Notes under the pieces: generated by a model | The model's input: only the letters and a program-made list of their open reading frames with translations | Database searches by the model: none | Told to the model about the DNA's origin: nothing | Part shown: piece by piece, positions 2,498-58,991 of the stretch | How the letters are laid out: each line of letters opens with the position of its first letter | How positions within the stretch are numbered: the stretch's first letter is position 1 | Assembly (NCBI GenBank): GCA_017999985.1 | Contig: JAGNKU010000001.1 | Coordinates: 237,276-301,275 of the forward strand | Length of the DNA stretch: 64,000 nt | Direction: 5' to 3' | From: Phycisphaerae bacterium | Lineage (GTDB): Bacteria; Planctomycetota; Phycisphaerae; UBA1845; Fen-1342 | Program-made: the position numbers and the translations under genes

Positions 2498-2541
2498 GGA
2501 GATGACCGCCCGTTTCAGGTCGGCCGGAGTGGAGATTGCCC

Positions 2542-3270
2542 GTGCGTTACCGTTTGTGCCTGTGCCTGCTCGGCGTCGCGAGCTGGGCGCTGCTGATGGG
2601 CGGCTGCCCGCGGCAGCCAGAGGAAGAGTCCGATACGGAGCCCACGCGTCCGGGCCGGGGCTCCACTACCGGCACCGGGCTGACACCCACCGGGACCGGG
2701 GGCTCCGGCGACGCCGGGACCGGGTCGTCCACCGTGGTTGTCGGGGGTGACACCGGCTCCGCAACGAGCACGCCGGATGCCCTGTCGGTCGAGTTTCCCG
2801 GCTGCACGGAGCCCGCCGAGGGCGCGTTCTGGCGATCGGAGGTCCTGCGGCTGGTCAATCAGGAGCGCGTTCGGCAGGGCCTGAATGCCGTCACCCTCAG
2901 CAGCACGCTCGAGGCCCAAGCCACGCAGTATGCGTGCGAAATGATCCACTACGACTTCTTCGGCCACGAGAACGACACGACCGGGTCGACACTCACCGAT
3001 CGGGCCGCCGAGTTCGGGTACGATTACTGGATCATCGGGGAGAATCTCGCCGCCGGGCAGCCCTCGCCCGCCCAGGCCGTTGCCGACTGGTTGGCCAGCC
3101 CGTGTCATCGAGAGAACATTCTCAATCCGGCGTTCACCGAGCTCGGGGTGGGCGTGCGGGCCGGCGGCGACTACGGCATCTACTGGGTGCAGGAATTCGG
3201 TCGCCCGTTCACCGCGGATCCCTACGCCGGCGAGCCCTACCACGATCCTGAGTGCGATCACGACGACTAG
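2542..3270 (+). CDS. CAP (SCP / PR-1-like) domain lipoprotein
   Basis: Signal peptide with lipobox (VRYRLCLCLLGVASWALLMGGC), a Thr/Gly-rich linker, then a CAP-domain core (GHENDTTGSTLTDRAAEFGYDYWIIGENLAAG...WLASPCHRENILNPAFTELGVGV). The start could be TTG 2536 or GTG 2542; an RBS (tggag) precedes 2542. Confidence 0.85.
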   Translation: MRYRLCLCLLGVASWALLMGGCPRQPEEESDTEPTRPGRGSTTGTGLTPTGTGGSGDAGTGSSTVVVGGDTGSATSTPDALSVEFPGCTEPAEGAFWRSEVLRLVNQERVRQGLNAVTLSSTLEAQATQYACEMIHYDFFGHENDTTGSTLTDRAAEFGYDYWIIGENLAAGQPSPAQAVADWLASPCHRENILNPAFTELGVGVRAGGDYGIYWVQEFGRPFTADPYAGEPYHDPECDHDD

Positions 3271-12319: not shown

Positions 12320-13660
12320 ATGGAATCCCCCGCGTCCTCGGCCGTCTTGCCACTTGAATTCCGTCAACCCCGGCAGTTGATCCGCTGGCTGGGCGTGATC
12401 GTGGCGTTCGCGGGCTGGGCCGCCTCGCTGGATCTGTTCCTGGTCTCGACGCGGGTCATGGCCAAGAGCGCGCTCTTCGACGCGGTCTGCGGCGGCGGTC
12501 CGGACAACGACTGCACCTCCGTACTGACCGCACCGCAGGCGTACGTGCCGTTCCGGACCAGGACCGGCACGATTCAGGTTCCGGTGTCGGCGTTCGGGAT
12601 GGCGTATTTCGCGTGTGTCGCGCTGTGGTACCTGTTCGTCGGGCCGCCGACGCACACCGGCCGCTGGTGGCACCTAGTCATCGCGCTGTTCGTGGTGCTC
12701 GGCGTGTGGCAGTCGCTCGAGTACATCCGCATCATGCATTCTGTGCTGCACCGCTGGTGCGGCGGATGCCTCGTTGCGCACGCCCTGAATGGCGGGTTGC
12801 TGCTGCTCACCGCGCTGGCGTATCCGTGGCACCCGCCGACGCGTCCGAATGCACGCCATCCAGCCGCGCGGCTCGTGCTGGCCACGCTGACCGCCGGCGC
12901 GCTGGCCTTCGTCCTGCACCTTCTGGTCGTGGGGCTGGCGATCGCCAACTCGCTGCAGAAAGAGCACCGGGCAAGATACGAGGCGGTGCTGAACGATCCG
13001 GAGTATGTGCGGTGGGACTTCAACCGACAGCCGGTCGTGACGATCCCGCTGGACGAGGACGAGTTGTTCGCGGGCGACCCCGCCGCGCCCGACACGATCG
13101 TCGTATTCGGCGATTTTCAGTGCCATGCCTGTCGCGAGCTGCATCTGGCACTGCAGCGCGTGGTCGCGAAATACCCGCAGCGGCTGCGCGTCGCCTTCCG
13201 GTACTTCCCGCAGGATCCGGAATGCAATCCGAAACCACGGTGGAGCGCGGGCGGGAATGTTTCGGCCTGCCGCGCGGCGCGGGCCGCCGAGGCGGCGCGG
13301 ATGATCGGCGGACGCGACGCGTACCTGGCCATGCGCGCGTTGCTCTGGGAGCGCCAGGACCAACTCCCGACACGCCCCGTCGCGCAGCAGGACGCACGCG
13401 AGCAGAAGCTGTTCGAAGACTGGGCCGCGGAGCTTGGCCTGGACCGGGCGGCCTTCACGGCCGCGTTCGACGGCCCCGCAGTCGCCGCCCGCGTGCAGCG
13501 CGATATCGCGCTCGGCGCGCGGCTGGACTTGTCCGCGATGCCGGTCGTGTACTTGAACGGCAAGCGCCTCCGCAACTGGAGCAAGCTCGAGGTGTGGGAT
13601 CTCCTGCTCGGCGGCCCGGCACCCGTCACCACGCAACCGGCTTCCGCCCCGGCACCGTAG
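12320..13660 (+). CDS. Vitamin K epoxide reductase (VKOR) domain fused to a thioredoxin-like DsbA domain
   Basis: The N-terminal half is a polytopic membrane domain with CGGG...C and CGGC (VKOR CxxC active site). The C-terminal half is thioredoxin-fold with FQCHACRELH (CxxC). ATG 12320 is in frame inside the longer track ORF 12116..13660. Confidence 0.8.
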   Translation: MESPASSAVLPLEFRQPRQLIRWLGVIVAFAGWAASLDLFLVSTRVMAKSALFDAVCGGGPDNDCTSVLTAPQAYVPFRTRTGTIQVPVSAFGMAYFACVALWYLFVGPPTHTGRWWHLVIALFVVLGVWQSLEYIRIMHSVLHRWCGGCLVAHALNGGLLLLTALAYPWHPPTRPNARHPAARLVLATLTAGALAFVLHLLVVGLAIANSLQKEHRARYEAVLNDPEYVRWDFNRQPVVTIPLDEDELFAGDPAAPDTIVVFGDFQCHACRELHLALQRVVAKYPQRLRVAFRYFPQDPECNPKPRWSAGGNVSACRAARAAEAARMIGGRDAYLAMRALLWERQDQLPTRPVAQQDAREQKLFEDWAAELGLDRAAFTAAFDGPAVAARVQRDIALGARLDLSAMPVVYLNGKRLRNWSKLEVWDLLLGGPAPVTTQPASAPAP

Positions 13661-14543: not shown

Positions 14544-17177
14544 ATGAACTTCCGTCGTCTGTCCGCGATCTTGACCACTGTGGCCTTGTGCACACTGACC
14601 GCCGGCACCGCCCGCGCCGAAACCGACCTGCACTGGGCCGCACGCCTCGGCGACAGCACCGTGGCGGCCGCGCTGCTCGCCGCCGGCCACGACGCTAACG
14701 CGACCGAGAATGACGGCACGACCGCGCTGCACATGGCCGCCGTGCGCGGCGACGTCACACTGGTCCAGATGCTGCTCAAGGCTGGCGCGAACCCCAGCCA
14801 GCGTGACGCGCTGGGGCGCACGCCGCTGCACCACGCGGCCCTGGGCGGCAATGGCGCGCTCGTCGAGTTGCTTGTCGCCGCCGGGGCCGAGGTGAATGTT
14901 GCCGACTTGCAGGGCGACACCCCGCTGCACCTGGCCGCGCGGCTGGTGCGCTCGGACGGCGTGCGGGCTCTGCTCGCCGCCGGCGCGGACGTGGGCGCGC
15001 GGAACGCCAACGGGCAGACGGCACTGCACGTGCTGGGGGCGGACCGGCGCGACGCCGACGAAGCGCGTGCGTTGATTGACGAACTGGCCGAGGTGCTGAT
15101 CGCCGGCGGCGCCGATCCCGGCGTGCAGGATCAGGACGGCCGGCGGGCCTGGCCGCGTGACGAGCAGCCGCCCAGCACCGGCCGACCGCCGTCGGGCTAT
15201 CCGTCTTACGACACCATCGTGTCGACGCTCCAGAACCGGGCGACCACGTATCCGGACCTCTGCCAGATCTTCGACCTGGGCGCATCAGCGGGCAGCGCCG
15301 GCCGTCACATCTGGGCCCTGAAGATCACCGACAACGTGGCCGTGGAGGAGGACGAGCCGGAATTCAAGTGGATTGCCAACATCCATGGCGACGAGGTCAC
15401 CGGCCTGGTCATGTGCCTGAACATGATCGACTACCTATTGCAGAACTATGGCACGCTGCCGCGCGTCACCGACCTCGTGAACGAAGTCGAAATCTGGATC
15501 GTGCCGACGATGAATCCCGACGGCTACATGAACAACACCCGTTACAACGTCAACGGCATCGACCTGAACCGTAATTTCCCCGAAGGCTCGGGCCCCAACC
15601 CCGACCCGAACACCACGACCGGCCGGGCCGCGGAAGTGGGCGTCATCATGAACTGGAGCTTCGCGCACTCGTTTACCCTGGCGGCGAACTTCCACGGCGG
15701 GGCCCTGGTCGCGAACTACCCCTTCGACAACGACAACATGGGCTCCGTGCCGTCGCCGACGCCGTACGAAGACCTGTTCGTCTGGATCAGCGAGCAGTAT
15801 TCGCAATACAACCTGCCGATGTGGAACAGCACGACGTTCTACCACGGCATCACGAACGGGGCGGCGTGGTACGCGATCGACGGCGGCATGCAGGACTGGG
15901 ACTACCGCTACATGGGCGGCAACGAGGTCACGCTGGAGATCGGCACGACCAAGAGCCCGGCCTATTCGCAGATGCCGACCTACTGGAGCCAGAACCGTGA
16001 CTCGATGCTCGCGTACATGGAGACCTGCCTCACCGGCGTGCGCGGCATTGTCACCGACGCTTACTCCGGCGCACCGCTGGCCGCCACCGTCAGCATCGTC
16101 GGCCGCAACCACAACATCTACACTGATCCCGACGTTGGCGACTATCACCGCATGGCGCGCCCTGGCTCGTATCAACTCCGCGTGGAAGCGGCCGGCTATG
16201 ACCCCGTGATCTATCCGGTCACCGTGGTCGAGGGCCCGGCGACGCGGCTCGATATCGCGCTGGCCGGCCCACCGCACCTGGTGGCGCCGAATGGCGGCGA
16301 GACGCTGACGGCGGGCGTGCCGACGACCGTGACCTGGACCGGCGCCCCGACGGCCCAGTTCCAGGTGCAGTACTCGGCGAACTACGGCGCGACCGGGCAG
16401 ACCACCGACGGCTTTGAAAGCGGCGCGCTGGACTCGACGTACACAACGGGCGGCAACGCCCCCTGGTTCGTGACGACCGGGACCGTCCACGGCGGCACGT
16501 ACGCGGCCCGCGCCGGCACGATCACGCACAGCCAGTCCACGTGGCTGACGCGCACGGCCGAGCCCGGCACGATGAGCTTCTGGTACAAGGTCAGCTCGGA
16601 GAGCGGCTACGACTACTTCAATTTCTACATCGACGGCGTGCAGAAGCTCCACCGCTCCGGCAACGTCAACTGGGTCCAGTACACGACCAGCCTCGCGGCC
16701 GGTAGCACGCACATTCTGAAATGGGAATACGTCAAGGACTCGGGCGTGAGCGGCGGCAGCGACACGGTCTGGATCGACGACTTGTCGCTCACCGGCGACG
16801 CCACGACCTGGACCGACATCATCGCCCTGACCGAGGTGGGCGCGACCGCCGCGAGCTGGACGCCCCCGGCCGAGGGCACGGACTACAAGGCGCGCGTACG
16901 GGCGGTGCTCGGCGGCGGCGGCTACAGCGCCTGGGACGAGAGCGATGGCAAGTTCACCGTCGTGGCCGGCCCGGAGTATCCGCTGGGCGACATGAACTGC
17001 GACCAGAGCGTGACGTTCGCGGACATCAACCCGTTCGTGCTGGCCCTGACCAACCCCGAGACGTACGCAGCGCAGTATCCGACCTGCCCGATCCTGAACG
17101 GCGACATCAACCAGGACGGAGCGCTCGGGTTCAGTGACATCAACCCGTTCGTGATGCTGCTGGCCACGGCGAAGTAG
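14544..17177 (+). CDS. Secreted multidomain protein: ankyrin repeats + M14 zinc carboxypeptidase + beta-sandwich region + C-terminal dockerin-like double repeat
   Basis: Signal peptide MNFRRLSAILTTVALCTLTAGTARA. Ankyrin repeats (GTTALHMAAVRGDVTLVQMLLKAGANP, GRTPLHHAALGGNGALVELLVAAGAEVN, GDTPLHLAA). M14 core (HIWALKITD, NIHGDEVTG zinc HxxE, GIDLNRNF, FHGGALVANYPFD). C-terminal double DINPFV repeat. Confidence 0.85.
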   Translation: MNFRRLSAILTTVALCTLTAGTARAETDLHWAARLGDSTVAAALLAAGHDANATENDGTTALHMAAVRGDVTLVQMLLKAGANPSQRDALGRTPLHHAALGGNGALVELLVAAGAEVNVADLQGDTPLHLAARLVRSDGVRALLAAGADVGARNANGQTALHVLGADRRDADEARALIDELAEVLIAGGADPGVQDQDGRRAWPRDEQPPSTGRPPSGYPSYDTIVSTLQNRATTYPDLCQIFDLGASAGSAGRHIWALKITDNVAVEEDEPEFKWIANIHGDEVTGLVMCLNMIDYLLQNYGTLPRVTDLVNEVEIWIVPTMNPDGYMNNTRYNVNGIDLNRNFPEGSGPNPDPNTTTGRAAEVGVIMNWSFAHSFTLAANFHGGALVANYPFDNDNMGSVPSPTPYEDLFVWISEQYSQYNLPMWNSTTFYHGITNGAAWYAIDGGMQDWDYRYMGGNEVTLEIGTTKSPAYSQMPTYWSQNRDSMLAYMETCLTGVRGIVTDAYSGAPLAATVSIVGRNHNIYTDPDVGDYHRMARPGSYQLRVEAAGYDPVIYPVTVVEGPATRLDIALAGPPHLVAPNGGETLTAGVPTTVTWTGAPTAQFQVQYSANYGATGQTTDGFESGALDSTYTTGGNAPWFVTTGTVHGGTYAARAGTITHSQSTWLTRTAEPGTMSFWYKVSSESGYDYFNFYIDGVQKLHRSGNVNWVQYTTSLAAGSTHILKWEYVKDSGVSGGSDTVWIDDLSLTGDATTWTDIIALTEVGATAASWTPPAEGTDYKARVRAVLGGGGYSAWDESDGKFTVVAGPEYPLGDMNCDQSVTFADINPFVLALTNPETYAAQYPTCPILNGDINQDGALGFSDINPFVMLLATAK
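16986..17174 (+). other. Dockerin-like C-terminal double-repeat module (copy 1 of 4 in the window)
   Basis: GDMNCDQSVTFADINPFVLALTNPETYAAQYPTCPILNGDINQDGALGFSDINPFVMLLATAK. Two D-x-N/D-x-DG-x-hydrophobic-x-F-x-DINPFV-x-LL segments resemble the duplicated Ca-binding loop-helix of dockerins. Confidence 0.6.
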
Positions 17178-40585: not shown

Positions 40586-41011
40586 TCAGAACGCCTGGTC
40601 GTCGTCGCTGGCCTGGTTGGCGGGTTGCGCTGGGCGCCCGATGATGGGCATGAGCACGTCGCGGAGCTGCTCGGGACGGAATGGCTTGCGTACAAAGCCG
40701 CGCGCCCCGGCGGCCATGAGTTCCTGGATGCGGGTTTCGCTGCCCTCGGTGGAGGCGATGATCACGGGGATATCACGCATGCGCTGGTCGACGTGCATCC
40801 GCTGCAGGAGCTTGATGCCATTCATCACCGGCATGTTGATGTCCAGCAGAATCACGCTGATCGGGTGTTCATACATCTGCGCCAGCGCCTCGATGCCGTT
40901 GCCCGCCTCGTAGACCTCGCCAATGTCGAGCGCACACATCGTCAGCGTGCGCTTGATCATGCCGCGCATCGTTCCGGAGTCGTCTACAACCAGTATGTTC
41001 GCAGGCATGGC
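40586..41011 (-). CDS. cheY: Chemotaxis response regulator CheY (single REC domain)
   Basis: MPANILVVDDSGTMR, ILLDINMPVMNGIKLL (phospho-acceptor Asp) and IIASTEGSE ... GARGFVRKPF. Confidence 0.85.
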   Translation of the reverse strand, partial: AMPANILVVDDSGTMRGMIKRTLTMCALDIGEVYEAGNGIEALAQMYEHPISVILLDINMPVMNGIKLLQRMHVDQRMRDIPVIIASTEGSETRIQELMAAGARGFVRKPFRPEQLRDVLMPIIGRPAQPANQASDDDQAF

Positions 41012-41018
41012 AATGTTC

Positions 41019-41873
41019 CTACTTCTTGGCAAACAGCGCCTGGACGGCGCGCAATTCGCCAATGGCCTCGGCCCCGATGCCTTCGAGGTCCGATTCGGTC
41101 AGGTGCGCGCGCCCCAGCACGGCCGGGTCGGCCCGGTAGGCCAGCCCGTCGTCCCCGGTGCCCACACCAAACAGCAGGCAAACCGCATCCGCCAGATAGA
41201 CGGCGTCCACCAGCGCGTCCGGTGTCGGCAGTGCGCCGGGGTCGTGGTGATAGCGGATGCAGCGCACGATCGAAGCCGGCAGGCTCCAGGTTTCGGCCAG
41301 GCGCGCCCCGACTTCCGCATGCGTGTAGCCGAGCAGCTCCTGCTCGACCTCGGGGAACGACGTCCGGTCCTCGCTGACCCGCCGCACGATTTCGGCGTAT
41401 TCCTCGCGCACAAACTCGTTCAGCACCAGCTTGCCCGTGTCGTGCAGCAGGCCGGCCGTGAAGAGCATCCCGTACTGCGTCAGCCGCATCCGCCGCGCCA
41501 GGATCTGCGCCGTCACCGCGACCCCAATCGCGTGCGACCAGAGCGCGCCCGCCGGCAGGCCGTAGCCCTCCTGGGGCGGACTCATCAGCGTGCGGGCATG
41601 CGTGGCCATGACGAGCTGGAACACGCGGACTGTGCCCAGCAGGCACACCGCGTCGTCGAGCGACTCGACGCTGCGTTCCAGGCCGTAGTACGCCGAGTTA
41701 CACAGCCGCAGGACCTCGGCCGTCAGCGCCGGGTCGTAGCGGATCACGTCCACGATCTGCGGCAGCGTGCTGCGCGGGTCGCTGACCACGGCGGCCAAGC
41801 GCAGCACCGTGGCCGGCAGGTGCGGCAGCGCGTTCACGCGCTCGACAATCCGATCGACCACCACGGGACTCAC
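41019..41873 (-). CDS. HDOD domain signalling protein
   Basis: LPHLPATVLRLAAVVSDPRSTLPQIVDVIRYDPALTAEVLRLCNSAYYGLERSVESLDDAVCLLG and AGLLHDTGKLVL are typical HDOD. A GTG start overlaps the cheD stop (GTGA). Confidence 0.8.
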   Translation of the reverse strand: MSPVVVDRIVERVNALPHLPATVLRLAAVVSDPRSTLPQIVDVIRYDPALTAEVLRLCNSAYYGLERSVESLDDAVCLLGTVRVFQLVMATHARTLMSPPQEGYGLPAGALWSHAIGVAVTAQILARRMRLTQYGMLFTAGLLHDTGKLVLNEFVREEYAEIVRRVSEDRTSFPEVEQELLGYTHAEVGARLAETWSLPASIVRCIRYHHDPGALPTPDALVDAVYLADAVCLLFGVGTGDDGLAYRADPAVLGRAHLTESDLEGIGAEAIGELRAVQALFAKK

Positions 41874-42349
41874 AGCGGCACCTCCTGATTGCGCGACTTG
41901 ACCGTGACGACTCCGGTGTCCACGTCGAGCTTCAACGTGCGACTCACGGAGCCGCCGACGTTCTCCGCGCTGATCATGACGCCGTTCTTCCAGAAGATCT
42001 TCCGCAGCGCGAGGTAGTTCCGCTTGCCGATGTTGAACGTCCCGTTGTCGTCGAGCAACTGCGAGCCGCCGGCGACCTTGATCACCAGCCGGCTCTTCAC
42101 CGCGCCCAGCTCGTACGCCGCCTTGAACAGCCGCGGGACGCCCGTGTCGCAGAACATCGCCGGGCTGCTGCGGGCCTTCTCGGGCGACAGTTGCGACTCC
42201 GGCAGCATGTAGTGCAGCATGCCGCCGACGTGCGCCACCGGATCCCAGATCGCCAGGCCGATGCAACTGCCCAGCGAATAGGTGATCAGGCTGCTGCCCG
42301 GCTCGGCGGCCACGGCCAGATCGGCAATGTCAACGACCACGAGGGCCAT
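41870..42349 (-). CDS. cheD: Chemoreceptor glutamine deamidase CheD
   Basis: YSLGSCIGLAIWDPVAHVGGMLHYMLP (catalytic Cys) and AENVGGSVSRTLKLDVDTGVV. Confidence 0.85.
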   Translation of the reverse strand: MALVVVDIADLAVAAEPGSSLITYSLGSCIGLAIWDPVAHVGGMLHYMLPESQLSPEKARSSPAMFCDTGVPRLFKAAYELGAVKSRLVIKVAGGSQLLDDNGTFNIGKRNYLALRKIFWKNGVMISAENVGGSVSRTLKLDVDTGVVTVKSRNQEVPL

Positions 42350-42430
42350 ACGGACTCTGCGGGGCGCGCCCGTTCGCCCGCGCCACGCGGCACAGCGCGG
42401 CGCGGATGAAACGGGTCGGCGGTGACGGGC

Positions 42431-42946
42431 CTACGACTCGCTCGCGGCGCCGGCAGCTTCCTCGAGCGCGGCCACCAGCTCCTCGGACCCGAGGACCTTG
42501 TCGATGTCGAGCAGGATCTTCACGTCGTCCTTGACCTTGCCCATGCCCATGATGAAGGTCGTATCGACCGACGCGCCCAACGGCGGCGGCGGATCGATCT
42601 GCGTCCCATCGATGTCCAGGACTTCCTGCACCGTGTCCACGATCACCCCCACCAGCGAGCCGACATCGACGACCACGATGCAGGTCTGCTCCGTGTACTC
42701 CGCCGACTCGAGCCCGAACTTCGTCCGCAGGTCGATGACCGGAATCACCTTGCCGCGCAAGTTGATCACGCCCTTGACGTACGGGGGCATCTGCGGCATC
42801 GCCGTGATGTCCATGATCCCGATGATCTCGCGGACCTTCAGGATCTCCAGCCCGTACTCTTCCGCGGCCAGGCTGAACGTGAGGTACTTGCCGCCCTGGG
42901 CGGTGTTGCGGCTCCGACTGCTCTTCTCGATCTGCGCTGCTTGCAT
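42431..42946 (-). CDS. cheW: Chemotaxis coupling protein CheW
   Basis: YLTFSLAAEEYGLEILKVREI...PYVKGVINLRGKVIPVIDLRTKFGL. Confidence 0.9.
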   Translation of the reverse strand: MQAAQIEKSSRSRNTAQGGKYLTFSLAAEEYGLEILKVREIIGIMDITAMPQMPPYVKGVINLRGKVIPVIDLRTKFGLESAEYTEQTCIVVVDVGSLVGVIVDTVQEVLDIDGTQIDPPPPLGASVDTTFIMGMGKVKDDVKILLDIDKVLGSEELVAALEEAAGAASES

Positions 42947-42958
42947 GGGTTCACACTC

Positions 42959-45451
42959 CTAGGCCGGCGCGGTGACCGGCTCGGCCGGGCACGCGACACC
43001 GCTGCTGGGCAACGCCGCACCAACGGCGTCGCAACCGTACTCGTCTGGCTCCGTGTCGAGCGGGGACGGCGGCCGCTCCGCCGACCCGGGGGAAACGGTG
43101 GGGGCCTGGTACGCCGCGCTGCCCCGCTGCTTGTGCAGCGCCAGCAGCCCGGTCGGCTCCAGAATCACACCGACGCGCCCGTCGCCGAGGATGGCGGCGC
43201 CGGACACGCCCTGCACGCTCTTGAAACGCTCGCCGAGCGTCTTGATCACGACCTGCTGCTGGCCGATCAGCTCGTCCAGCACGAGGGCGATCTTCTGCCC
43301 CTCGCACTGCACAATCACCACCAGGTTCTCGCAGGGGTCGATCGGCGCGCCATAGCCGAACAGCGCCCCGAGCTGGATCAGCGGGCACAGCTCGCCGCGC
43401 ACCTGCAGCATCGCGCCCCGCCGCTGCACGCTCGTGATCTGCCGCGGCTCCGGCCGCAGCGACTGTTCGATCAGGATCGTCGGGATGATCATGCGCTCGC
43501 TGCCGACGCGCACCAGCATGCCGTCGATGATCGCCAGCGTGAGCGGCAGGCGGATGAAGAAGACGCTGCCGCGCCCCTTCTCCGACTGGATCTCGATCTT
43601 GCCGCGGAGCTGTTCCACGTTCCGCCGCACGACGTCCATCCCCACCCCGCGTCCCGAAATGTCGGTCACGACTTCCGCGGTGGAGAAGCCGGGCTGCAGG
43701 ATCAGCGCGAAGGCCTGCTGGTCGGAGAGCTGGTCGTCGGCCGTGATCAGCCCGCGCTCGATACCCTTGGCAATCAGCTTCTGCGGATCGAGCCCGCGCC
43801 CGTCGTCGCGAATCTCGATCACGATGCTGTCGCCCTGGTGATACGCGTTCAGCAGCACCTGCCCGACTTCCGGCTTGCCGGCCGCCAGGCGGTCCGCCAC
43901 CGGCTCGATGCCGTGGTCCACCGCGTTGCGGACCATGTGCACGAGCGGGTCGGACATCTGCTGGATGACGTTCTTGTCCAGCTCGGTCTCCTCGCCGTTA
44001 ATCACCAGCTCGACCTGCTTGTTGGCCTTGCGGGCCACGTCGCGCACCAGCCGGCGCATCTTCTGGAAGGTCTGTCCGATCGGCACCATCCGCATCGCCA
44101 TCGCCGTTTCCTGGACGTCGCGGACAATCTTGGTCACCTGCGACACGTTGCGGTGCAGCTTCTCGTCGCCCGTCACCGCCTCGGTCAGGCACACCATCGA
44201 CTGCGCGATCACCAGCTCGCCGACCGCGTCCACCAGCATGTCCAGCTTGTGCGTGTCCACCCGGATCGAGTGATCCATCACCGGCTTGCCCGCCGACTGC
44301 TGCGACAGCGCCCGCTCCACGTCGCCGACACTGGCCGCGCCTTCGTCGACCAGCACCTCGCCCAGCTTGCGCTGCGGCGGCGTATCCCGTTCCTGCGTCC
44401 GCAGCGCCGCGTGCACCTGGGACGCCGTCGCGGCCCCTTCGGCCACCAGCAGCTCGCCGAGCATCGGGCGGGCTGGCGCGGTCGCCGCCGGAGCCGCGGC
44501 GCCCGGCTGGGCCGCCCGCCGGAGCTGTCTCATGACGGCGCTGATCTCCGGCTGCGGGCACGGCCCACCGGTCGGGGCCGCCATGTAGCGCCGGATGGCG
44601 TCGAGCTGCGCCTTCAGCACGTCCACGCTGGCGAAGATCAGGTCCACGGTGCCCGCCGTGATGCGCAGCTCGTTCTTGCGGCCCTGGTCCAGGATCGTCT
44701 CGATTTCGTGCGTCAGCCGGTTGATGTCGCGCAGGTTCAGGAAACCGGCGATGCCCTTGATCGTGTGGAACGGTCGGAAGAGCTCGTCGATCTTGGTCGT
44801 GTCCGTCGGGTCTGTCTCGAGCGCGAGCAACCCGGCCTCGATCGCGTCCATGTGCTCGGTGGACTCGTCGAGGAAGCCGACCAGGTGCTCGCGCTCGCTC
44901 AGATCGAGCACCAGCGGCTCGCTGACATATGTCTCGTCCGGCGCCGCGGGCGCTGCGGCCCCAGGGGCGGACGCCGCGCGCTCGGGCACCGCAGGCGCCG
45001 ACGGCGGCGCCGGGGCCGGCGTCACCGCGTTCACCGGCGCACTGGGCGGCGGCGCGGGCGACGGGGCGACGGCCGGCGGCGCCGGAGGCGCGCCGGCCCC
45101 CGCCGCCGGGCCGTTGACGGCTTCGCGGATGCGCGTCACCAGCGAGTCCGCGGCAACCGTCTGGCCTTGATGGGCCTGTTCAATCAGGCACGCGGCTTCG
45201 GAGACGAGCGCAATCCCGAGTTCCGGGTTGGCGGCCTCGTCGAGAATCAGGCGTTCCAGCAGCAGCACGAGGCTCTCCGCCATCTGCCCGATGGGCGGGC
45301 TCACGACCGCGCCACCGCCCGGGGAGGCCGCCTCGACCAGGCTCTGGCCCCAGGAGTGCATGCGCGCCAGGCGCCCCAGGTCGTTCCTCTCCGGGGGCGT
45401 CGAGATTGCCTCGTGCAGGCCCGCGATTGCCGCTTCAACTGCTTGTTTCAT
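42959..45451 (-). CDS. cheA: Chemotaxis histidine kinase CheA (HPt, Pro/Ala-rich linker, dimerisation, HATPase, CheW-like domains, ~70-aa C-terminal extension)
   Basis: HPt (ELFRPFHTIKGIAGFLNL), HATPase (DHGIEP...GDSIVIEIRDDGRGLD...GRGVGMDVV), and a CheW-like C-terminal domain. The start is ATG 45451 (MKQAVEAAIAGL) inside track ORF 42959..45664. Confidence 0.9.
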   Translation of the reverse strand: MKQAVEAAIAGLHEAISTPPERNDLGRLARMHSWGQSLVEAASPGGGAVVSPPIGQMAESLVLLLERLILDEAANPELGIALVSEAACLIEQAHQGQTVAADSLVTRIREAVNGPAAGAGAPPAPPAVAPSPAPPPSAPVNAVTPAPAPPSAPAVPERAASAPGAAAPAAPDETYVSEPLVLDLSEREHLVGFLDESTEHMDAIEAGLLALETDPTDTTKIDELFRPFHTIKGIAGFLNLRDINRLTHEIETILDQGRKNELRITAGTVDLIFASVDVLKAQLDAIRRYMAAPTGGPCPQPEISAVMRQLRRAAQPGAAAPAATAPARPMLGELLVAEGAATASQVHAALRTQERDTPPQRKLGEVLVDEGAASVGDVERALSQQSAGKPVMDHSIRVDTHKLDMLVDAVGELVIAQSMVCLTEAVTGDEKLHRNVSQVTKIVRDVQETAMAMRMVPIGQTFQKMRRLVRDVARKANKQVELVINGEETELDKNVIQQMSDPLVHMVRNAVDHGIEPVADRLAAGKPEVGQVLLNAYHQGDSIVIEIRDDGRGLDPQKLIAKGIERGLITADDQLSDQQAFALILQPGFSTAEVVTDISGRGVGMDVVRRNVEQLRGKIEIQSEKGRGSVFFIRLPLTLAIIDGMLVRVGSERMIIPTILIEQSLRPEPRQITSVQRRGAMLQVRGELCPLIQLGALFGYGAPIDPCENLVVIVQCEGQKIALVLDELIGQQQVVIKTLGERFKSVQGVSGAAILGDGRVGVILEPTGLLALHKQRGSAAYQAPTVSPGSAERPPSPLDTEPDEYGCDAVGAALPSSGVACPAEPVTAPA

Positions 45452-45969: not shown

Positions 45970-46722
45970 TCACGACCCCTGAGTAAGCAGCAGCACGAAT
46001 GGATTAACGTCGGCGAAGGTCACATAACCGTCGCGATTCACGTCGGCACCGCAGCGGGCTGCCACGCTCGCCGCCGCCGGATCGACGAGCACGCTGACGA
46101 ACGGATTGATGTCGGCGAAGGTTGCTTCACCGTTGCCGTCCACGTCGCCCGTTTCGCACTCCACGACGGAGAGGCGGAGCGTGAACGGCTCCGAATCCGC
46201 GTAGCCGGTGCTGCCCCGGTCTTCCAGGCTGAACGTCCCGTACCACAATGTACGCAGCGGGTCGTAGAGCGGGTCCGCGCAGTCCACGACGAAGATCACG
46301 TGGCGGTGCAAGGTCGCAGAGCCCAGCGGCAGCGACTCACCCGCCTCGTGGACGGTCGTCGTGCCATACTTGACGCGAAACGCCGGCTGCAAGTCTTCGT
46401 AGGCGACGAGGTAGATCGCCGCCCCGTAGTCAAGCAGGAAGTAGTCCTGCGCCGGATCGGATGCGAAGTTCGCATCGAAGCCGGGACTCGTCGCCCGCCA
46501 GCTCGTCGGCGCCGTCGGGTCCGGGATCGGCGTCAACAGGCCGATCCCGACCGCCGGCTCAAAGCACGGATTCTGCGCGTCGGACAGGCGACACTTGAGC
46601 TGCCCTGCCGCCGAGTGCCCGACGCCGATATCACCCGAGTGTTGCGCAAGCGCGGCGACCGTGGCAAACGACAGCCATAGGAGTCCCACCACCGTCCTAC
46701 GTATACTGCTGAAACTGCACAT
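45970..46722 (-). CDS. Small secreted protein with C-terminal dockerin-like double repeat
   Basis: Signal peptide MCSFSSIRRTVVGLLWLSFATVAALA with a GGAGG RBS. The C-terminus is GDVDGNGEATFADINPFVSVL...GADVNRDGYVTFADVNPFVLLLTQGS. The start is ATG 46722 inside track ORF 45970..47052. Confidence 0.6.
   Translation of the reverse strand: MCSFSSIRRTVVGLLWLSFATVAALAQHSGDIGVGHSAAGQLKCRLSDAQNPCFEPAVGIGLLTPIPDPTAPTSWRATSPGFDANFASDPAQDYFLLDYGAAIYLVAYEDLQPAFRVKYGTTTVHEAGESLPLGSATLHRHVIFVVDCADPLYDPLRTLWYGTFSLEDRGSTGYADSEPFTLRLSVVECETGDVDGNGEATFADINPFVSVLVDPAAASVAARCGADVNRDGYVTFADVNPFVLLLTQGS
45973..46155 (-). other. Dockerin-like C-terminal double-repeat module (copy 2 of 4)
   Basis: ETGDVDGNGEATFADINPFVSVLVDPAAASVAARCGADVNRDGYVTFADVNPFVLLLTQGS. 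Confidence 0.55.
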
Positions 46723-46754: not shown

Positions 46755-47375
46755 CTAGACGCTTTGCCGCCGACGCGCGACTGCCAGCACGCCCGCCGCC
46801 AGCAACAACGCCGCGCTCGGCTCGGGCGCAAACGTCACCGTCACCGGATCGCTGGCCAGATGCGCAGCGCCGGTCCGCAGATCCACAAACCGAAATGTCA
46901 CGTCCCACGCCGTCACGGTCGGGTCGTAGTGGGGGTCCGTCGTGTCGATGTGCCACCAGACGTGCTCGTGAAAATCCCCCAGGCCCGGGAAGTTGTACGT
47001 CTGCCCCGCCAGAATCTGGAAGCCCGTCTCGCCCGGCCCCAGCGGATTCCACACCTTGAACGCCGTGCCGCTCACCGCCAGCAACTCGAATCCGATGTCC
47101 GCCGCGGCGTCCACCGGCACGAAATCCGGGTCGTCCGGATCCGGCCCATCCAGTCCGATCAGGCCCGGATCGTCGAGCGCCCAGCCAACCAGCAATAGGT
47201 GTTCTGAGCGCGGCAACGCAAAAGGATAGAGGTCCGGGTCATACTCGACCTCGAGCTGGTTGGTCGGCGCATTCACGCCAATGAGAAAGTCCTCGCCGTG
47301 GGCATGCGCCCAAGTAATCGCCGGCGTAAGCGCCGCAACAGTAAGGACCGTCAATGCGAAAGCAAATCGTGTCAT
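46755..47375 (-). CDS. PEP-CTERM sorting-domain protein
   Basis: Signal peptide MTRFAFALTVLTVAALTPAITWA with a GGAGG RBS. The C-terminal PEPSAALLLAAGVLAVARRRQSV is the canonical PEP motif plus TM helix plus basic tail. Confidence 0.7.
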   Translation of the reverse strand: MTRFAFALTVLTVAALTPAITWAHAHGEDFLIGVNAPTNQLEVEYDPDLYPFALPRSEHLLLVGWALDDPGLIGLDGPDPDDPDFVPVDAAADIGFELLAVSGTAFKVWNPLGPGETGFQILAGQTYNFPGLGDFHEHVWWHIDTTDPHYDPTVTAWDVTFRFVDLRTGAAHLASDPVTVTFAPEPSAALLLAAGVLAVARRRQSV

Positions 47376-49397: not shown

Positions 49398-49594
49398 CAG
49401 CGCGACCACCACTCCAGGTCGCATGAATCGGCCCACGGCGACGCGTCGTGGGCCGTTTTCATTGGGGCGCCGGGTTTACGGCGGCCGGGCGCGGGGGTAG
49501 GGTTCACCGTTACGTTCGATTCCGAGCGCGGCGCCGGAACGTGGGTTCGTGCCCAAGCCATCGCGAAGCATTCATCACGTGGAGGTGTTGTACC

Positions 49595-53570: not shown

Positions 53571-54944
53571 TCACTTACCGCCGGTCAGCGCCGCCACAAA
53601 CGGATTGATGTCGCCAAACCCGACTTCGCCGTCGGCATCCATATCACCGTGCAGCGGCGGGCAGTCGGGGTACATCTGCGCATACGCCGGCGGATTGCTC
53701 AGGGCCAGGACGAAGGGATTGATGTCGCCGAAGCCGATCGTCCCGCTGCAGTCGAGATCGCCAAACGGGATTTCGTAGGCGCCCATGTCGACGACGAACC
53801 GCGCGATGCGCGGGTGGCCATCGAGGTCGAGCGACCCCGCGGGCACCACGCCATTATCGCCCGCGTCGAGACACGGCGAAGCGAACGTGAGGCGGTAATC
53901 GTTATCCGCGATCGTACTCGGATCGTTGTCCGGCCCGTCGGGGTCGCGGAAGAGCGGATCGGCGTCGATGTTACCGTCGCCGCTCCAGCCGCCCTGTACG
54001 TCGCAGTGGGTCACGACCGGACTGCCCAAATAACCGTCGAATTGCTGCGGCGTGTTGGCCCAGAGAATGCAGTTCGTAACGACCGGGCTTGAGGATTGGC
54101 AGTAGAGGCCGCCCCCAGCGGTGCCGGCGATATTGCCCACGATCGTGCAGTTCCGCAACGCTGTGCCGGCGGCGGCGCAGTAAATACCGCCACCGTTATT
54201 CGTTCCTGTGTTGCGCGTGATGATGCAGCCGGTGAAGATCACACCGGAATTCGCGGAGTACACGCCGCCGCCGTTGCCGGCCGTGTTGTTGGCGATCCAG
54301 CAGTGGGTGAATGTCGGGCTGGAATCGACGCTGGAGATGCCGCCGCCAAGGTTATTGATGCTCGTGTTGCCCACGATGAGGCAGTTCGTCAGGCTCGCGT
54401 TGGAGGAGGCTTCGCAGCTCACGCCACCGCCGCCGGTACCCGCATTGCCGCTGATCGTGCAGTCGAGCAACGTGGGGCTGGCGTGCTCGCAGTGCAGCCC
54501 GCCCGCGAAGAACTGGGCTGTATTGCCCGTTATCACGCAGTTGCTCAGCGTCGGGTGGGCGGAGATGCAGTACACACCGCCTCCGCCAGGGTAGACCACA
54601 TTCCCATTGCGGATGGTGAGGCCCTGTACGAGCGCCGCCGCGGATTCGCCGCTGTGGAAGTAGAAGCCCCGGCCGCTGTTGCCGGAATCGATGATGCAGG
54701 TGGCCGGAGCGCCGCTCGCCGAGCGCACCGTGATCGCCAGACCGTGAAAATCGAGGTTCTTGTTGCCGGTGCCGGTGTAGGTGCCATCGGCGATGATGAC
54801 CGTGTCGCCGGCGACACAGGCATTGATGGCCGCCTGAATCGTGGCGTATGTGCCGGGCACATGCCGGTCGGTTGCCAGGGCGGTCGCGCCGCACAACAGT
54901 GCGAACGCGCACGAAAGGGCGATGAACTGGTTAACCCCGGCCAT
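53571..54944 (-). CDS. Secreted right-handed parallel beta-helix repeat protein (pectate-lyase fold) with C-terminal dockerin-like double repeat
   Basis: Signal peptide MAGVNQFIALSCAFALLCGATALA with a GGAGGAGG RBS. There are about 12 beta-helix coils (NCxIxGNTA..GGG pattern). The C-terminus is GDLDCSGTIGFGDINPFVLALSNPPAYAQMYPDCPPLHGDMDADGEVGFGDINPFVAALTGGK. Confidence 0.8.
   Translation of the reverse strand: MAGVNQFIALSCAFALLCGATALATDRHVPGTYATIQAAINACVAGDTVIIADGTYTGTGNKNLDFHGLAITVRSASGAPATCIIDSGNSGRGFYFHSGESAAALVQGLTIRNGNVVYPGGGGVYCISAHPTLSNCVITGNTAQFFAGGLHCEHASPTLLDCTISGNAGTGGGGVSCEASSNASLTNCLIVGNTSINNLGGGISSVDSSPTFTHCWIANNTAGNGGGVYSANSGVIFTGCIITRNTGTNNGGGIYCAAAGTALRNCTIVGNIAGTAGGGLYCQSSSPVVTNCILWANTPQQFDGYLGSPVVTHCDVQGGWSGDGNIDADPLFRDPDGPDNDPSTIADNDYRLTFASPCLDAGDNGVVPAGSLDLDGHPRIARFVVDMGAYEIPFGDLDCSGTIGFGDINPFVLALSNPPAYAQMYPDCPPLHGDMDADGEVGFGDINPFVAALTGGK
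53574..53762 (-). other. Dockerin-like C-terminal double-repeat module (copy 3 of 4)
   Basis: GDLDCSGTIGFGDINPFVLALSNPPAYAQMYPDCPPLHGDMDADGEVGFGDINPFVAALTGGK. Confidence 0.6.
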
Positions 54945-56741: not shown

Positions 56742-58991
56742 TCACGGCCCGCTAAGCAAGAGTACAAAAGCATTTATATCGCCGAAGCCGACGCTGCCGT
56801 CCCCGTTGCAGTCCGCGTGGTTCACGTCACAGTGCGGGAACGCCGCCGCGTACGCCACCGGGTTGGTCAACGCCAGCACGAACGGGTTGATGTCGCGGAA
56901 ATCCAGCCGGCCGTCGCAGTTCACGTCGCCGGGCAGCTCCGCACAACCCGTCGCATAGACCTGCACGTCATCCACGTTCCAGCCGCAGTACGCCCAGCCC
57001 GCGTCGGTCGGCCCCATCGTCCAGCGCAGGTAAACCGTCGGCTGATTGTCCGCCTCGGCGGAGATGTCGAAGTCCTGCAGCGTCCAAACGTTGTCCGCCA
57101 CTTCCGTCGTGTTCTGCCAGACCGTCACCCAGTTCACGCCGTCGCGGCTGACGCCCACCGCCGCCCGGTCGTAGGGCGCCTGCTCGACGCCCAGCCAGCG
57201 CCAGAACGACAGCCGCAGGCCCCATTGGCCACGACAATCGAACGGCAGGCTGGTCAGGTGCCGCTCGGGCAGGCTGTTCGTGTAGTCGCCGGCGAGGTTG
57301 TAGCCGTACACGTACGGCCCCGTGTGCCCGCTGGTGGGATCCGGTCCGCCGTGGGCCCCGCCGCCGCCCGTCGGCTGCCCCCACGCCCACTGTGCCTCCG
57401 TTGACCACCCGGGGTTGGCGGCCAGGTCATCCTCGAACACGGTGGTGCCGCTGACCATCCCCGCCGCATAGAGGTCCCCCGGCGCGCCGGCCGGGGCCAG
57501 CGTCACGCCGGCGTCGCCTACGACGCTGAAGTAGTACTCGGGGGTTGCGCCGCAATGGGTCCGCGGCAGCGCGCCGAGGAATGAGGCGCCGCCCAGATGC
57601 GTGAGCGGCACGACCGTGAAGGCCTCGTCCGCGTGATACCGGTAGTGCAAGAGGGCCGTGCCCACGTCCAGCACCTCGTCGGCCGAGGTGATCGTGACGG
57701 CGATCGGCGTGTCCGCGCCCACGACCAGTTGCGCGGGCAACCCATCCGGGAAGCGGAACTGCGTCGCGCGGACCATCGCCGAGTTCGTCAGGTGCAGCAG
57801 CGCCGGCAGCACCTCCTCGTTGTTCGGGATGATCTGGCTGGCCGGGAGGATGAAACCATACGTGCCCGTGTCGCGCAGCTCGAACGAAAACGAGAAGATG
57901 TCGCGCACCCCATACGTCCAGTCCGCGGAGCCGCCGCTCACCGGGTAAATCGTGCTATAGATCGGTCCGGCGGTGTAGGTGAGACCGTGCACGCTCTGAA
58001 TGAGCTGCTGCATGGCGAGCCCGACGGCCTGGTACGCTGGCTGGTCCGGCGGCAACTCCGGCTTGTAGCCCCAAGGCCAGAGAATGAGCTGCGAGTAGCT
58101 GTGAATGTCGTTCATGGCGCGGACCTGCGGATGCGCGATGAAAAAGTCGCGCAGCGCCTGGGTTTCGGGCTCGGAGAACGGGGCTGGGCCACGATACGTT
58201 TGCGAGCTGGGCAAGCCACTGGAGCCGTTCAGCCCCCAGCCCATGCCGAAGTTGCGGTTGATGTCGACGCCGAAAACCCCGCCGCCGTTGTCGCGCCGGT
58301 TCTTCCGCCAGAGCCGGTCGTTTGTCCACGTGTAGACGTAGCCATCCGGGTTGCCCACCGGGATCAGGAACCACTCGACGTGGTCGACGACGTCGGTGAT
58401 CGCCGGATCGAGGCCGTAATTCGCCAGCAGGTGCGTGGCCACGTACTGTGGCACAGTCGGCCCGATCCATTCGCGGGCGTGCAGGCCGGCGAAGTAGACG
58501 ACGGCTGGGCTGGTCGGCGGCAGCGCTGGTCCCGCGATCCGCAGTCCCCAGATGGTCCGGCCCTCGAGGGACGTACCGACGTTGATCACCGCGGCGAGGT
58601 CTGGGTAGCTCGCCGCAAGCTGGTTCAGATACGTCACGATGTCGTCGTAGGCGTGGTAGGCGTCGAACCAGCCGCGTGGGGCCGCCGCCTGCTCGGTATC
58701 GATCAAGTGCTGCACGTCCTCGATCCAGACGTGGTACGGGACCCCAAGCCCCTCCAACTCCGCCAGCATCCCCGGCGGCAGCAGCACGTCGACGGGCCCG
58801 CGGCCCACGTGCTCGGTCCAGAGATCCGCCCCCCGCGCGAGCAGCGGCGCCAACGCCTGCTCATCCGTCCCCCAGACGCGCGCCACCTGGCAGCCGTCGT
58901 AGCGGCGCGGCGTCTCAGCGGCCGCGGCCAGGCCCCATGGCCACAACCAGATCGTCCCCACCATGAGTACAACTCGACTCGGGCTGCGCAT
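56742..58991 (-). CDS. Secreted M14 zinc carboxypeptidase with C-terminal beta-sandwich and dockerin-like double repeat
   Basis: Signal peptide MRSPSRVVLMVGTIWLWPWGLAAAA with a GGAGG RBS. M14 core (AGLHAREWIG zinc HxxE, VDINRNF, NDIHSYSQLILWPWGY, SGGSADW). The C-terminus is GDVNCDGRLDFRDINPFVLALTNPVAYAAAFPHCDVNHADCNGDGSVGFGDINAFVLLLSGP. Confidence 0.85.
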   Translation of the reverse strand: MRSPSRVVLMVGTIWLWPWGLAAAAETPRRYDGCQVARVWGTDEQALAPLLARGADLWTEHVGRGPVDVLLPPGMLAELEGLGVPYHVWIEDVQHLIDTEQAAAPRGWFDAYHAYDDIVTYLNQLAASYPDLAAVINVGTSLEGRTIWGLRIAGPALPPTSPAVVYFAGLHAREWIGPTVPQYVATHLLANYGLDPAITDVVDHVEWFLIPVGNPDGYVYTWTNDRLWRKNRRDNGGGVFGVDINRNFGMGWGLNGSSGLPSSQTYRGPAPFSEPETQALRDFFIAHPQVRAMNDIHSYSQLILWPWGYKPELPPDQPAYQAVGLAMQQLIQSVHGLTYTAGPIYSTIYPVSGGSADWTYGVRDIFSFSFELRDTGTYGFILPASQIIPNNEEVLPALLHLTNSAMVRATQFRFPDGLPAQLVVGADTPIAVTITSADEVLDVGTALLHYRYHADEAFTVVPLTHLGGASFLGALPRTHCGATPEYYFSVVGDAGVTLAPAGAPGDLYAAGMVSGTTVFEDDLAANPGWSTEAQWAWGQPTGGGGAHGGPDPTSGHTGPYVYGYNLAGDYTNSLPERHLTSLPFDCRGQWGLRLSFWRWLGVEQAPYDRAAVGVSRDGVNWVTVWQNTTEVADNVWTLQDFDISAEADNQPTVYLRWTMGPTDAGWAYCGWNVDDVQVYATGCAELPGDVNCDGRLDFRDINPFVLALTNPVAYAAAFPHCDVNHADCNGDGSVGFGDINAFVLLLSGP
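56745..56930 (-). other. Dockerin-like C-terminal double-repeat module (copy 4 of 4)
   Basis: GDVNCDGRLDFRDINPFVLALTNPVAYAAAFPHCDVNHADCNGDGSVGFGDINAFVLLLSGP. Confidence 0.6.

Follow-up and report, generated by a model that had tools for sequence, protein, structure and literature searches.

A divergent dockerin-type module at the C-termini of four putatively secreted Phycisphaerae proteins and its proposed role in cell-surface tethering

Analysis of a 64,000-nucleotide stretch of DNA from a Phycisphaerae bacterium (contig JAGNKU010000001.1, positions 237,276 to 301,275; hereafter, the window) revealed four open reading frames (ORFs) ending in the same bipartite module of 59–63 amino acids, which, judging from its sequence and predicted structure, is a divergent form of the dockerin domain. 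The module is genuine, a variant of a known domain that curated models do not cover, and represents a large Planctomycetota subfamily, highly expanded in Phycisphaerae-type genomes. Its most likely role, as far as can be read from sequence, is to tether enzymes to the cell surface.

The first-pass annotation of this DNA had claimed that four proteins share one C-terminal bipartite module and had proposed building a profile from the four copies. This profile, searched against a six-frame translation of the whole window, recovered exactly these four modules and no others (E from 1e-32 to 1e-39; next-best match E ~1), and the alignment of the copies further supported the claim. Copy 1 (positions 16986..17174, plus strand; 63 aa), GDMNCDQSVTFADINPFVLALTNPETYAAQYPTCPILNGDINQDGALGFSDINPFVMLLATAK, forms the C-terminus of an 877-aa protein (14544..17177) and has two Ca loops of the DxNxDG type with a D-I-N-P-F-V helix after each, one Cys lying in loop 1 and another in the "YPTC" linker. 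Copy 2 (45973..46158, minus strand; 62 aa counted from an upstream Cys) has a shorter linker and carries Cys residues ahead of loop 1 and directly ahead of loop 2, the arrangement of a true GC-type dockerin; copy 3 (53574..53762, minus strand; 63 aa) was delineated by the profile match and the four-copy alignment, and copy 4 (56745..56930, minus strand; 62 aa) has an extra Cys in loop 2. The annotated Cys pattern (a conserved Cys in the first repeat of copies 1, 3, and 4, and one or two more in the spacer) is correct; module 2, without a loop-1 Cys, has one three residues before the first "GD". Modules 2–4 are 44–58% identical to module 1, with 23 invariant columns in the four-copy alignment, and the C-terminal ends of the four carriers read ...LLATAK, ...LLTQGS, ...ALTGGK, and ...LLLSGP. 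At the DNA level, the copies diverge at many synonymous sites throughout, pointing to conservation of the protein and ruling out that the four arose by a recent duplication of the DNA or by gene conversion.

The carrier products (877, 250, 457, and 749 aa) exactly match deposited GenBank proteins, and signal-peptide-like N-termini can be read from all four sequences. Behind its signal peptide, carrier 1 (MBP7744670.1; 14544..17177, plus strand) comprises ankyrin repeats, an M14 carboxypeptidase domain (N/E-like), a CarboxypepD_reg domain, and ~220 unassigned residues before the module. Carrier 2 (MBP7744696.1; 45970..46722, minus strand), annotated as hypothetical, has a ~160-aa domain of unknown function; carrier 3 (MBP7744703.1; 53571..54944, minus strand) has a right-handed beta-helix and a choice-of-anchor Q domain; and carrier 4 (MBP7744705.1; 56742..58991, minus strand) combines an M14 propeptide, an M14 carboxypeptidase domain (A/B-like), and a choice-of-anchor-J-like domain. 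A DUF7453 gene (55225–56520) separates carriers 3 and 4. The identities initially assigned to the carriers hold, based on Peptidase_M14 matches in carriers 1 and 4 (E 1e-55 and 1e-93) and on the GenBank name of carrier 3 (right-handed beta-helix protein). The two carboxypeptidases are 31% identical in their M14 domains and 50% identical in the module, and have nothing else in common.

Each half of the module consists of a 12-residue EF-hand-type loop (D-x-N-x-D-G-x-V-D/N-F-x-D) followed by a helix starting with I-N-P-F-V, so that the module displays the two-loop dockerin design of tandem ~22-residue segments with Asp or Asn at loop positions 1, 3, 5, 9, and 12. Among 465 relatives, positions 1, 3, 5, and 12 are D/N in at least 90% of sequences in both repeats and position 9 in ~70%, and these kept ligand positions suggest that the module binds Ca2+. 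An AF2 model of the region 16968–17174, obtained with a 124-sequence alignment (models from the four sequences alone were unreliable, one with pLDDT 79.8 and four with ~48), reached a pLDDT of 94.7 and is predicted to be all-helical, with no helix before loop 1, as in the dockerin "F-hand". Together with a fold search, this model yields the three-helix dockerin fold, in agreement with the original suggestion of a duplicated Ca loop and short helix resembling the dockerin F-hand. A canonical, calmodulin-like EF-hand pair was rejected on the grounds of sub-threshold loop matches to the Pfam EF-hand models (12–19 bits vs. 25–30), PDB matches confined to the loop segments, and the absence of a helix entering loop 1. 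In most members, a disulfide probably links loop 1 to the linker, as suggested by the co-occurrence of the two Cys residues.

Two curated dockerin models miss the module at their cut-offs, which explains why the carriers were deposited as "hypothetical" or named for their catalytic domain only. With Pfam Dockerin_1 (PF00404), three copies score 11.3–17.2 bits and the fourth has no match (gathering threshold 22.9 bits), and of 124 single-module relatives, 5 attain E<=1e-4, roughly equivalent to this threshold. With NF041540, copy 2 scores 16 bits against a cut-off of 29, copies 1, 3, and 4 have no match, and none of the 124 single-module relatives reach E<=1e-6; only multi-copy relatives sum to the cut-off. 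By these scores, membership in either family was rejected. A direct comparison of the family profile (124 sequences) with the four modules of a GC-type reference, the protein P0178 (47.4 bits on NF041540, above its cut-off), gave an hhalign probability of 98% (E 1.4e-13; 54 aligned columns with 44% identity), by which the module is homologous to the NF041540 GC-type dockerin. Thus, the "GC-type dockerin" mentioned in the first-pass annotation stands as a homologue, while the window modules themselves fall below its cut-off; the phrase was not found in a literature search. The module resembles the GC type in its occurrence in Planctomycetota-type proteins, two-loop design, and Cys pair, and the curators' name ("GC-type dockerin domain-anchored protein") implies the same anchoring role. 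It differs in a linker that is 8–9 residues longer (P-x-x-Y-x-x-x-Y-P-x-C) and in the placement of Cys: copies 1, 3, and 4 carry Cys within loop 1 and within the linker, whereas GC-type dockerins have theirs ahead of loop 1 and directly ahead of loop 2; moreover, Dockerin_1 usually recognises GC-type relatives and rarely relatives of this module. To the type I dockerins known from cellulosomes of clostridia and ruminococci (PF00404; for example, PDB 6KG9, 2CCL_B, 3UL4_B, 4DH2), the identity is 15–27%; in contrast to them, the module has a helix beginning with I-N-P-F-V with a conserved Pro, Phe-Gly/Ala at loop positions 10–11 replacing the Ser-Thr recognition pair that contacts cohesin, a conserved Cys pair, a Gram-negative Planctomycetota host, peptidases and a beta-helix protein rather than cellulases as passengers in the window, and no cohesin partner found.

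The family defined by this module includes 10,896 clusters at 50% identity (E<=1e-3), or 4,983 at E<=1e-10, with at least 25–41 carriers per related MAG and passengers from 89 unrelated Pfam families; the bacteria concerned recur in public assemblies, the index of the collection listing 95 blocks for one carrier, of which 23 contigs were read. Exceptions to the C-terminal position are observed in some relatives, where the module is internal, N-terminal (in RHS giants), or directly followed by a PEP-CTERM tail (P0229), and thus other anchors can accompany it. A search for cohesins in relatives with an internal or N-terminal module found none; what these proteins yielded was RHS repeats, a GEVED domain, a PEP-CTERM tail, and a weak match to Peptidase_M10.

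The slot occupied by the module is equivalent to that of known anchor tails, an equivalence that is one of guilt by position. A gene adjacent to carrier 2 (46755..47375, minus strand; 32-nt gap) is a paralogue of the C-terminal part of the carrier 2 passenger (BLASTP E 3e-7, 36% over 53 aa) and has a PEP-CTERM tail (TIGR02595, 17.5 bits, cut-off 16; PF07589, 21.0 bits, cut-off 20.7) where carrier 2 has the module, the alignment stopping a few residues before each tail. Across 76 loci, one more clear case of a PEP-CTERM paralogue of a module carrier was found (L068), so that such pairs exist and are not common; within the window, three non-carrier genes have true PEP-CTERM tails. Directly before the module of carrier 3 lies its choice-of-anchor Q domain (53769..53897, minus strand; aa 350–392; NF041518, 27 bits, cut-off 25), a family seen in 10/104 family representatives. 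The pre-module domain of carrier 4 (56952..57425, minus strand; aa 523–680) has homologues elsewhere (58–69% identical) that are followed in the same slot by a T9SS Por_Secre_tail (PF18962, in other phyla), MYXO-CTERM, canonical Dockerin_1, or another dockerin variant. The module thus resembles PEP-CTERM/exosortase, MYXO-CTERM, and T9SS tails in its location at the extreme C-terminus, the kinds of passengers, the choice-of-anchor domains in front, and its interchangeability with them in paralogues and orthologues. However, these signals are cleaved, with subsequent covalent attachment or translocation, and are built on a beta-sandwich in T9SS and on a transmembrane helix with a basic tail in PEP-CTERM and MYXO-CTERM, whereas the module is a folded helical domain with predicted Ca binding and without a hydrophobic anchor, so that any attachment would have to be non-covalent.

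Taken together, the fold, intact Ca-ligand positions, co-occurring Cys residues, strict C-terminal position, diverse passengers, and slot equivalence observed here form the basis of an explanation that we regard as fairly probable, namely, that a Ca-loaded divergent dockerin docks secreted carriers non-covalently to a conserved cell-surface receptor, be it a cohesin-like protein or something different. Counting against this explanation are the searches that turned up no receptor, the scores below both dockerin cut-offs, and the relatives in which the module is accompanied by another anchor. According to this scheme, the two halves would pack into the three-helix dockerin fold, the carriers would be exported via their Sec signal peptides, the Cys pair would be oxidised in the periplasm, and, once the carriers have crossed the outer membrane, the Ca2+-loaded C-terminal module would dock to the receptor. 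Such docking may keep hydrolases and adhesin-like proteins of many kinds, dozens per genome, associated with the cell, which would make the module a third option beside PEP-CTERM/exosortase and similar C-terminal anchors.

Some of the same observations would also fit a dockerin fold with a non-cohesin ligand, that is, Ca2+-dependent binding to a repetitive, non-protein constituent of the envelope (peptidoglycan, LPS, or capsular polysaccharide) or to a non-cohesin surface protein, in the manner of SLH, LysM, or choline-binding wall anchors and not of a cellulosome connector. No Cohesin Pfam domain was found in window genes or their neighbours, either in Pfam annotations or in a scan of the remaining ORFs, as had been noted initially for the window, and no cohesin was detected in 1.41 Mb of related DNA (best E 5.4), a weak negative given the narrow HMM, built from three C. 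thermocellum cohesins taken from PDB alignments. The part of the first-pass annotation describing a shared targeting module is consistent with the diversity of carriers and the C-terminal anchor slot, but with no cohesin found, its cohesin-like anchor and multi-enzyme assembly are putative. Published counts of 25–42 dockerins vs. 0–1 cohesins per related Phycisphaerae MAG, the replacement of the Ser-Thr contact pair, and a motif nearly invariant across many MAGs, as expected for one conserved ligand, point in the same direction, as do tandem arrays of 2–5 modules in many relatives, which would suit avidity for a polymer. Nevertheless, the list of best matches in which these arrays appear is biased towards multi-copy proteins, and 149/150 carriers from related MAG loci have a single module; all solved dockerins in the fold-search lists are complexed with cohesins or known from cohesin systems; and many carriers could share one abundant single-cohesin anchor. 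Overall, we consider a non-cohesin ligand of this kind unlikely.

Distinctly less probable is a module without any partner, serving as a Ca2+- and disulfide-stabilised C-terminal cap for folding after export, protection from proteolysis, or recognition during outer-membrane translocation. RTX repeats, well known to fold outside the cell when triggered by Ca, provide a precedent; the searches turned up no receptor, and the module precedes a PEP-CTERM tail in P0229 and is N-terminal in the RHS-repeat giants. These points are opposed by the location of the module in the exact slot that canonical dockerin, PEP-CTERM, MYXO-CTERM, and T9SS tails fill after shared passenger domains, by the choice-of-anchor domains in front of it, by the 89 unrelated families, for which a common folding need is hard to argue, and by the Sec signal peptides of the four carriers, implying that the module is no T1SS signal. 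A cleavable PEP-CTERM or T9SS-type sorting signal for a dedicated sortase-like enzyme, which had been named as the finding that would overturn the binding-module interpretation, is highly improbable and largely refuted on sequence and predicted fold: despite the strict C-terminal position, high copy number per genome, and slot shared with real sorting signals, the four tails lack the PEP-CTERM/MYXO-CTERM layout (short motif, hydrophobic transmembrane helix, Arg/Lys-rich tail), the carriers match no model of these or of the T9SS C-terminal domain (a beta-sandwich of ~80–100 aa; TIGR04183/PF18962), the predicted fold is that of a helical dockerin, and PEP-CTERM tails occur on separate proteins in the same window and in series with the module in one relative.

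Docking of secreted carriers to a surface receptor has a close precedent in the "planctosome" hypothesis, in which M14 peptidases with dockerins had already been put forward for Phycisphaerae (Andrei et al., 2019, ISME J, PMC6461901). The two proposals share the idea that secreted M14 carboxypeptidases and other peptidases with dockerins would dock in a Ca2+-dependent manner at the outer membrane, and both concern MAGs with dozens of dockerins. The planctosome model is purely bioinformatic, derived from one Nemodlikiaceae MAG with dbCAN and InterPro dockerin/cohesin matches, and names a specific cohesin-bearing adaptor and anchor, whereas for the present module no cohesin is seen; the Cys staple and the equivalence with PEP-CTERM/T9SS slots are absent from that work (PMC6461901).

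A bolder version of our proposal, offered tentatively and as somewhat unlikely, is that the DINPFV module constitutes a cohesin-independent, Planctomycetota-specific system of surface display, in which a disulfide-stapled dockerin fold holds tens to hundreds of exoenzymes per cell on a conserved envelope receptor (protein or glycan). The excess of "orphan" dockerins outside cellulosome producers has long been noted, and such a system, if true, would provide a concrete answer to it, as well as a non-covalent, Ca2+-switchable counterpart of PEP-CTERM/exosortase and T9SS anchoring. As a small Ca2+-dependent, disulfide-stabilised docking tag, the module could serve protein display, and as a defined 62-residue bait for a receptor hunt it would bring the question of "dockerins without cohesins" within experimental reach for a Gram-negative phylum. 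In these abundant and mostly uncultured bacteria, much of the degradative proteome outside the cell would become visible once the module is recognised.

The first-pass annotation described one bipartite C-terminal module shared by four otherwise unrelated secreted proteins, and this description holds across the window, where a profile of the four copies, run against the six-frame translation of the 64 kb, returned exactly four matches (E 1e-32 to 1e-39) and a fifth-ranked match at E of about 1. The exact products of all four ORFs are deposited in GenBank from a Phycisphaerae MAG (901,202-bp contig): carrier 1 (14544..17177, plus strand; MBP7744670.1, 'DUF2817 domain-containing'), carrier 2 (45970..46722, minus strand; MBP7744696.1, KA383_01090, 'hypothetical'), carrier 3 (53571..54944, minus; MBP7744703.1, 'right-handed parallel beta-helix repeat-containing') and carrier 4 (56742..58991, minus; MBP7744705.1, KA383_01135, 'hypothetical'). 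Their N-termini all read as signal-peptide-like. In the four-copy alignment, module copies 2-4 are 44-58% identical to copy 1, with 23 invariant columns; synonymous positions in the DNA differ throughout, which argues that the copies are old and maintained by protein-level selection. Carriers 1 and 4 both contain Peptidase M14 domains (only 31% identical), beyond which the module (50% identity) is their sole common part; carrier 1 adds ankyrin repeats and a CarboxypepD_reg domain, and carrier 4 an M14 propeptide. Carriers 1, 3 and 4 have orthologues elsewhere among the MAGs (41-66% identity), all of which retain the module.

Several ankyrin repeats (Ank_2, E 4e-40) make up the N-terminal part of carrier 1 (14544-15200, plus), an unusual feature for a secreted bacterial enzyme, here a Sec-signal-bearing M14 carboxypeptidase; five further MAGs (loci L001, L032, L075, L007 and L008) share this architecture, with 60-66% identity. 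The carriers are dispersed among housekeeping genes, with no dedicated island. Flanking genes comprise a chemotaxis cluster (about 40586-45664, minus) with CheA (42959-45664), CheW, CheD, an HDOD/HD protein and a response regulator, together with genes for a GH172 glycoside hydrolase (49448-51589, plus) and for an aromatic amino-acid ammonia-lyase (51917-53479, plus). The window also encodes a member of the CAP/SCP (cysteine-rich secretory protein) family (2536-3270, plus; PF00188, E 6e-18).

Dockerins as a kind are well characterised, and the double Ca-loop/helix design proposed for the module is borne out by prediction. An AlphaFold model of copy 1 (16968-17174), based on a 124-sequence alignment, is confidently helical (module pLDDT 94.7; five models 93.9-94.7; helices at residues 17-28, 30-36, 42-45 and 55-67). 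Among 465 unique relatives the consensus reads G-D-L-N-C-D-G-x-V-D-F-G-D-I-N-P-F-V-L-A-L-[TS]-[ND]-P-x-x-Y-x-x-x-Y-P-x-C-x-x-x-N-G-D-I-N-G-D-G-x-V-D-F-G-D-I-N-P-F-V-A-L-L, and in each of the two repeats Asp or Asn makes up at least 90% of residues at EF-hand ligand positions 1, 3, 5 and 12. Sequence searches concur weakly with a dockerin identity: three module copies give sub-threshold Dockerin_1 matches, EF-hand loops are matched too, and 21 of 104 full-length relatives match Dockerin_1 at E<=1e-3.

Membership in either curated family is ruled out by the families' own cut-offs. All four copies fall short of the Pfam threshold for Dockerin_1 (17.2 bits at most vs. 22.9), and NF041540, the planctomycete-type 'GC-type dockerin' that NCBI curates and the first-pass annotation had mentioned, is matched by copy 2 only (16 bits vs. 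29); among single-module relatives, 5/124 reach about the former threshold and 0/124 about the latter. Homology is nevertheless clear: a profile-profile comparison with the modules of P0178, a true NF041540 member (47.4 bits) in which the pattern C-L-L-G-D-V-N-x-D-G...Q-C-E-A-D-I-N-x-D-G is repeated as four tandem modules, gave 98% (E 1.4e-13). Compared with this GC-type form, the linker of the DINPFV type is longer by 8-9 residues and the cysteines are placed differently. Missed cut-offs and homology together make the module a sister subfamily within the dockerin superfamily, in keeping with the distinctive variant originally proposed. Copy 2 looks intermediate between the two types because its Cys arrangement is GC-type: it has no Cys in loop 1 but one ahead of that loop. 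Its linker is also shorter.

The loop-1 and linker cysteines are each 93% conserved among the 465 relatives and tend to occur together (both, n=423; neither, n=23; one, n=19; Fisher 4e-24, uncorrected for phylogeny), supporting the earlier guess of a disulfide, which probably joins loop 1 to the linker. Two genes upstream of carrier 1 lies the gene for a VKOR + thioredoxin/DsbA fusion (446 aa; window about 12320-13660, plus; L081 7777-9117), which shows that periplasmic disulfide-forming machinery is present in the organism, and which could be the oxidant of the module Cys pair.

Extended to wider data, the four-sequence profile retrieved 10,896 proteins at E<=1e-3 (4,983 at E<=1e-10) from 1.84 billion cluster representatives, and the pattern FxDINPFVL, scanned against a single genome for each species, gave 469 confirmed sites. 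Nearly all of the best 76 loci come from MAGs of Planctomycetota/Phycisphaerae, a single MAG often contributing many. In 1.24 Mb of related MAG DNA there are 150 module-bearing ORFs (C-terminal in 141/150, single-copy in 149/150). Individual MAGs have at least 37, 41 and 25 carriers; density in the window is 4 per 64 kb. Top-scoring representatives, a list skewed to multi-copy proteins, have the module at the end in 124/142 and 2-5 copies in 48. Passengers are very diverse (89 Pfam families among 104 proteins, e.g., beta-helix, purple acid phosphatase, fn3/Ig, and C25, M12B and S8 peptidases). Modules 65-69% identical to copy 1 on short contigs of a 'Mycobacterium sp.' MAG (L016, JAQTVU010000452.1, 3.3 kb) and a 'Bipolaricaulota' MAG (L017, JALHJZ010000014.1, 2.7 kb) are most likely mis-binned Planctomycetota DNA rather than true occurrences. 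Small proteins consisting almost wholly of 3-5 tandem dockerin-like modules (P0121, P0123, P0140, P0142, P0178 and others), several of which match thrombospondin-type-3 MtsC and Omp28-selenoprotein NCBIfam models below cut-offs, might act as adaptors or belong to a Ca-binding matrix.

Four observations assign the module to a slot normally held by cell-surface anchoring tails. Firstly, a choice-of-anchor Q domain (above cut-off) immediately precedes it in carrier 3, and choice-of-anchor domains (Q, B, J and E) turn up repeatedly among relatives. Secondly, carrier 2 is directly preceded, 32 nt away on the same strand, by a gene (46755-47375, minus) paralogous to at least the C-terminal part of its passenger domain; in both proteins the alignment stops a few residues short of the C-terminal tail, and the upstream product ends in a PEP-CTERM tail passing both curated models (TIGR02595 and PF07589). 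A second adjacent pair of this kind exists at L068. Thirdly, homologues of the 158-aa pre-module domain of carrier 4 (58-69% identical) bear four other tail kinds: T9SS Por_Secre_tail (at least 9 proteins), MYXO-CTERM, canonical Dockerin_1 and another dockerin variant, the last on a protein named 'choice-of-anchor J' in GenBank. Fourthly, the module is helical and has neither a transmembrane segment nor a basic tail, which rules out a sortase-type signal, and any attachment through it must thus be non-covalent.

The carrier 2 gene pair forms an apparent three-gene operon with a prepilin-type N-terminal methylation protein (47423-48196, minus; GspG-like N-terminus, planctomycete DUF1559-like), which overlaps the paralogue by 4 nt. 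A larger region of carrier 4 (aa 406-680; 56952-57776, minus) recurs before the module as a cassette. At least five other carriers from related MAGs (L041, L050, L037, L004, L003; 652-1059 aa) contain it at 49-54% identity behind differing N-terminal parts, which suggests that pre-module domain and module move together. Two further PEP-CTERM-tailed proteins are encoded at 48759-49397 (plus), passing both models, and at 55225-56520 (minus), a DUF7453 protein lying between carriers 4 and 3 on their strand, whose typical VPEPGALTLLALLGVIALRRR tail scores 18.1 bits against the 20.7 cut-off of PF07589; such proteins indicate that the organism uses exosortase-type anchoring alongside the dockerin-like module.

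The anchor-slot evidence fits a Ca2+-dependent docking module. It is not just a terminal anchor, given that P0229 (2067 aa) carries two modules, the second directly before a PEP-CTERM tail, and the RHS-repeat giants P0145 (2142 aa) and P0260 (2363 aa) carry two near the N-terminus; these cases make it a putative binding module of general use.

Nothing found here supports the multi-enzyme assembly, in the cellulosome sense, that had been proposed. The window contains no annotated or detectable Cohesin domain, as the first-pass annotation had noted, and a clostridial cohesin HMM, a narrow model, found none when run on related DNA totalling 1.41 Mb. For the larger Nemodlikiaceae (Phycisphaerae) MAGs, Andrei et al. 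(2019; PMC6461901) list 25-42 dockerins and 0-1 cohesins in a supplementary CAZy table. Such counts would fit a receptor that is one abundant anchor with a single cohesin, and would fit a non-cohesin receptor just as well. We consider it rather unlikely that a cohesin-independent system of Ca-switchable surface display operates across Planctomycetota.

Non-cellulosomal dockerins have been reported in Gram-negative phyla (e.g., Cloacimonadota), and the 'planctosome' of Andrei et al. explicitly draws M14 carboxypeptidases docked by dockerins in Phycisphaerae; our literature search found no experimental work on any of these or on the GC-type dockerin. Beyond these sources, the present analysis delineates and sizes a DINPFV subfamily invisible to curated models, and adds a probable disulfide staple in two topologies and direct evidence that the module is interchangeable with PEP-CTERM, MYXO-CTERM and T9SS tails.
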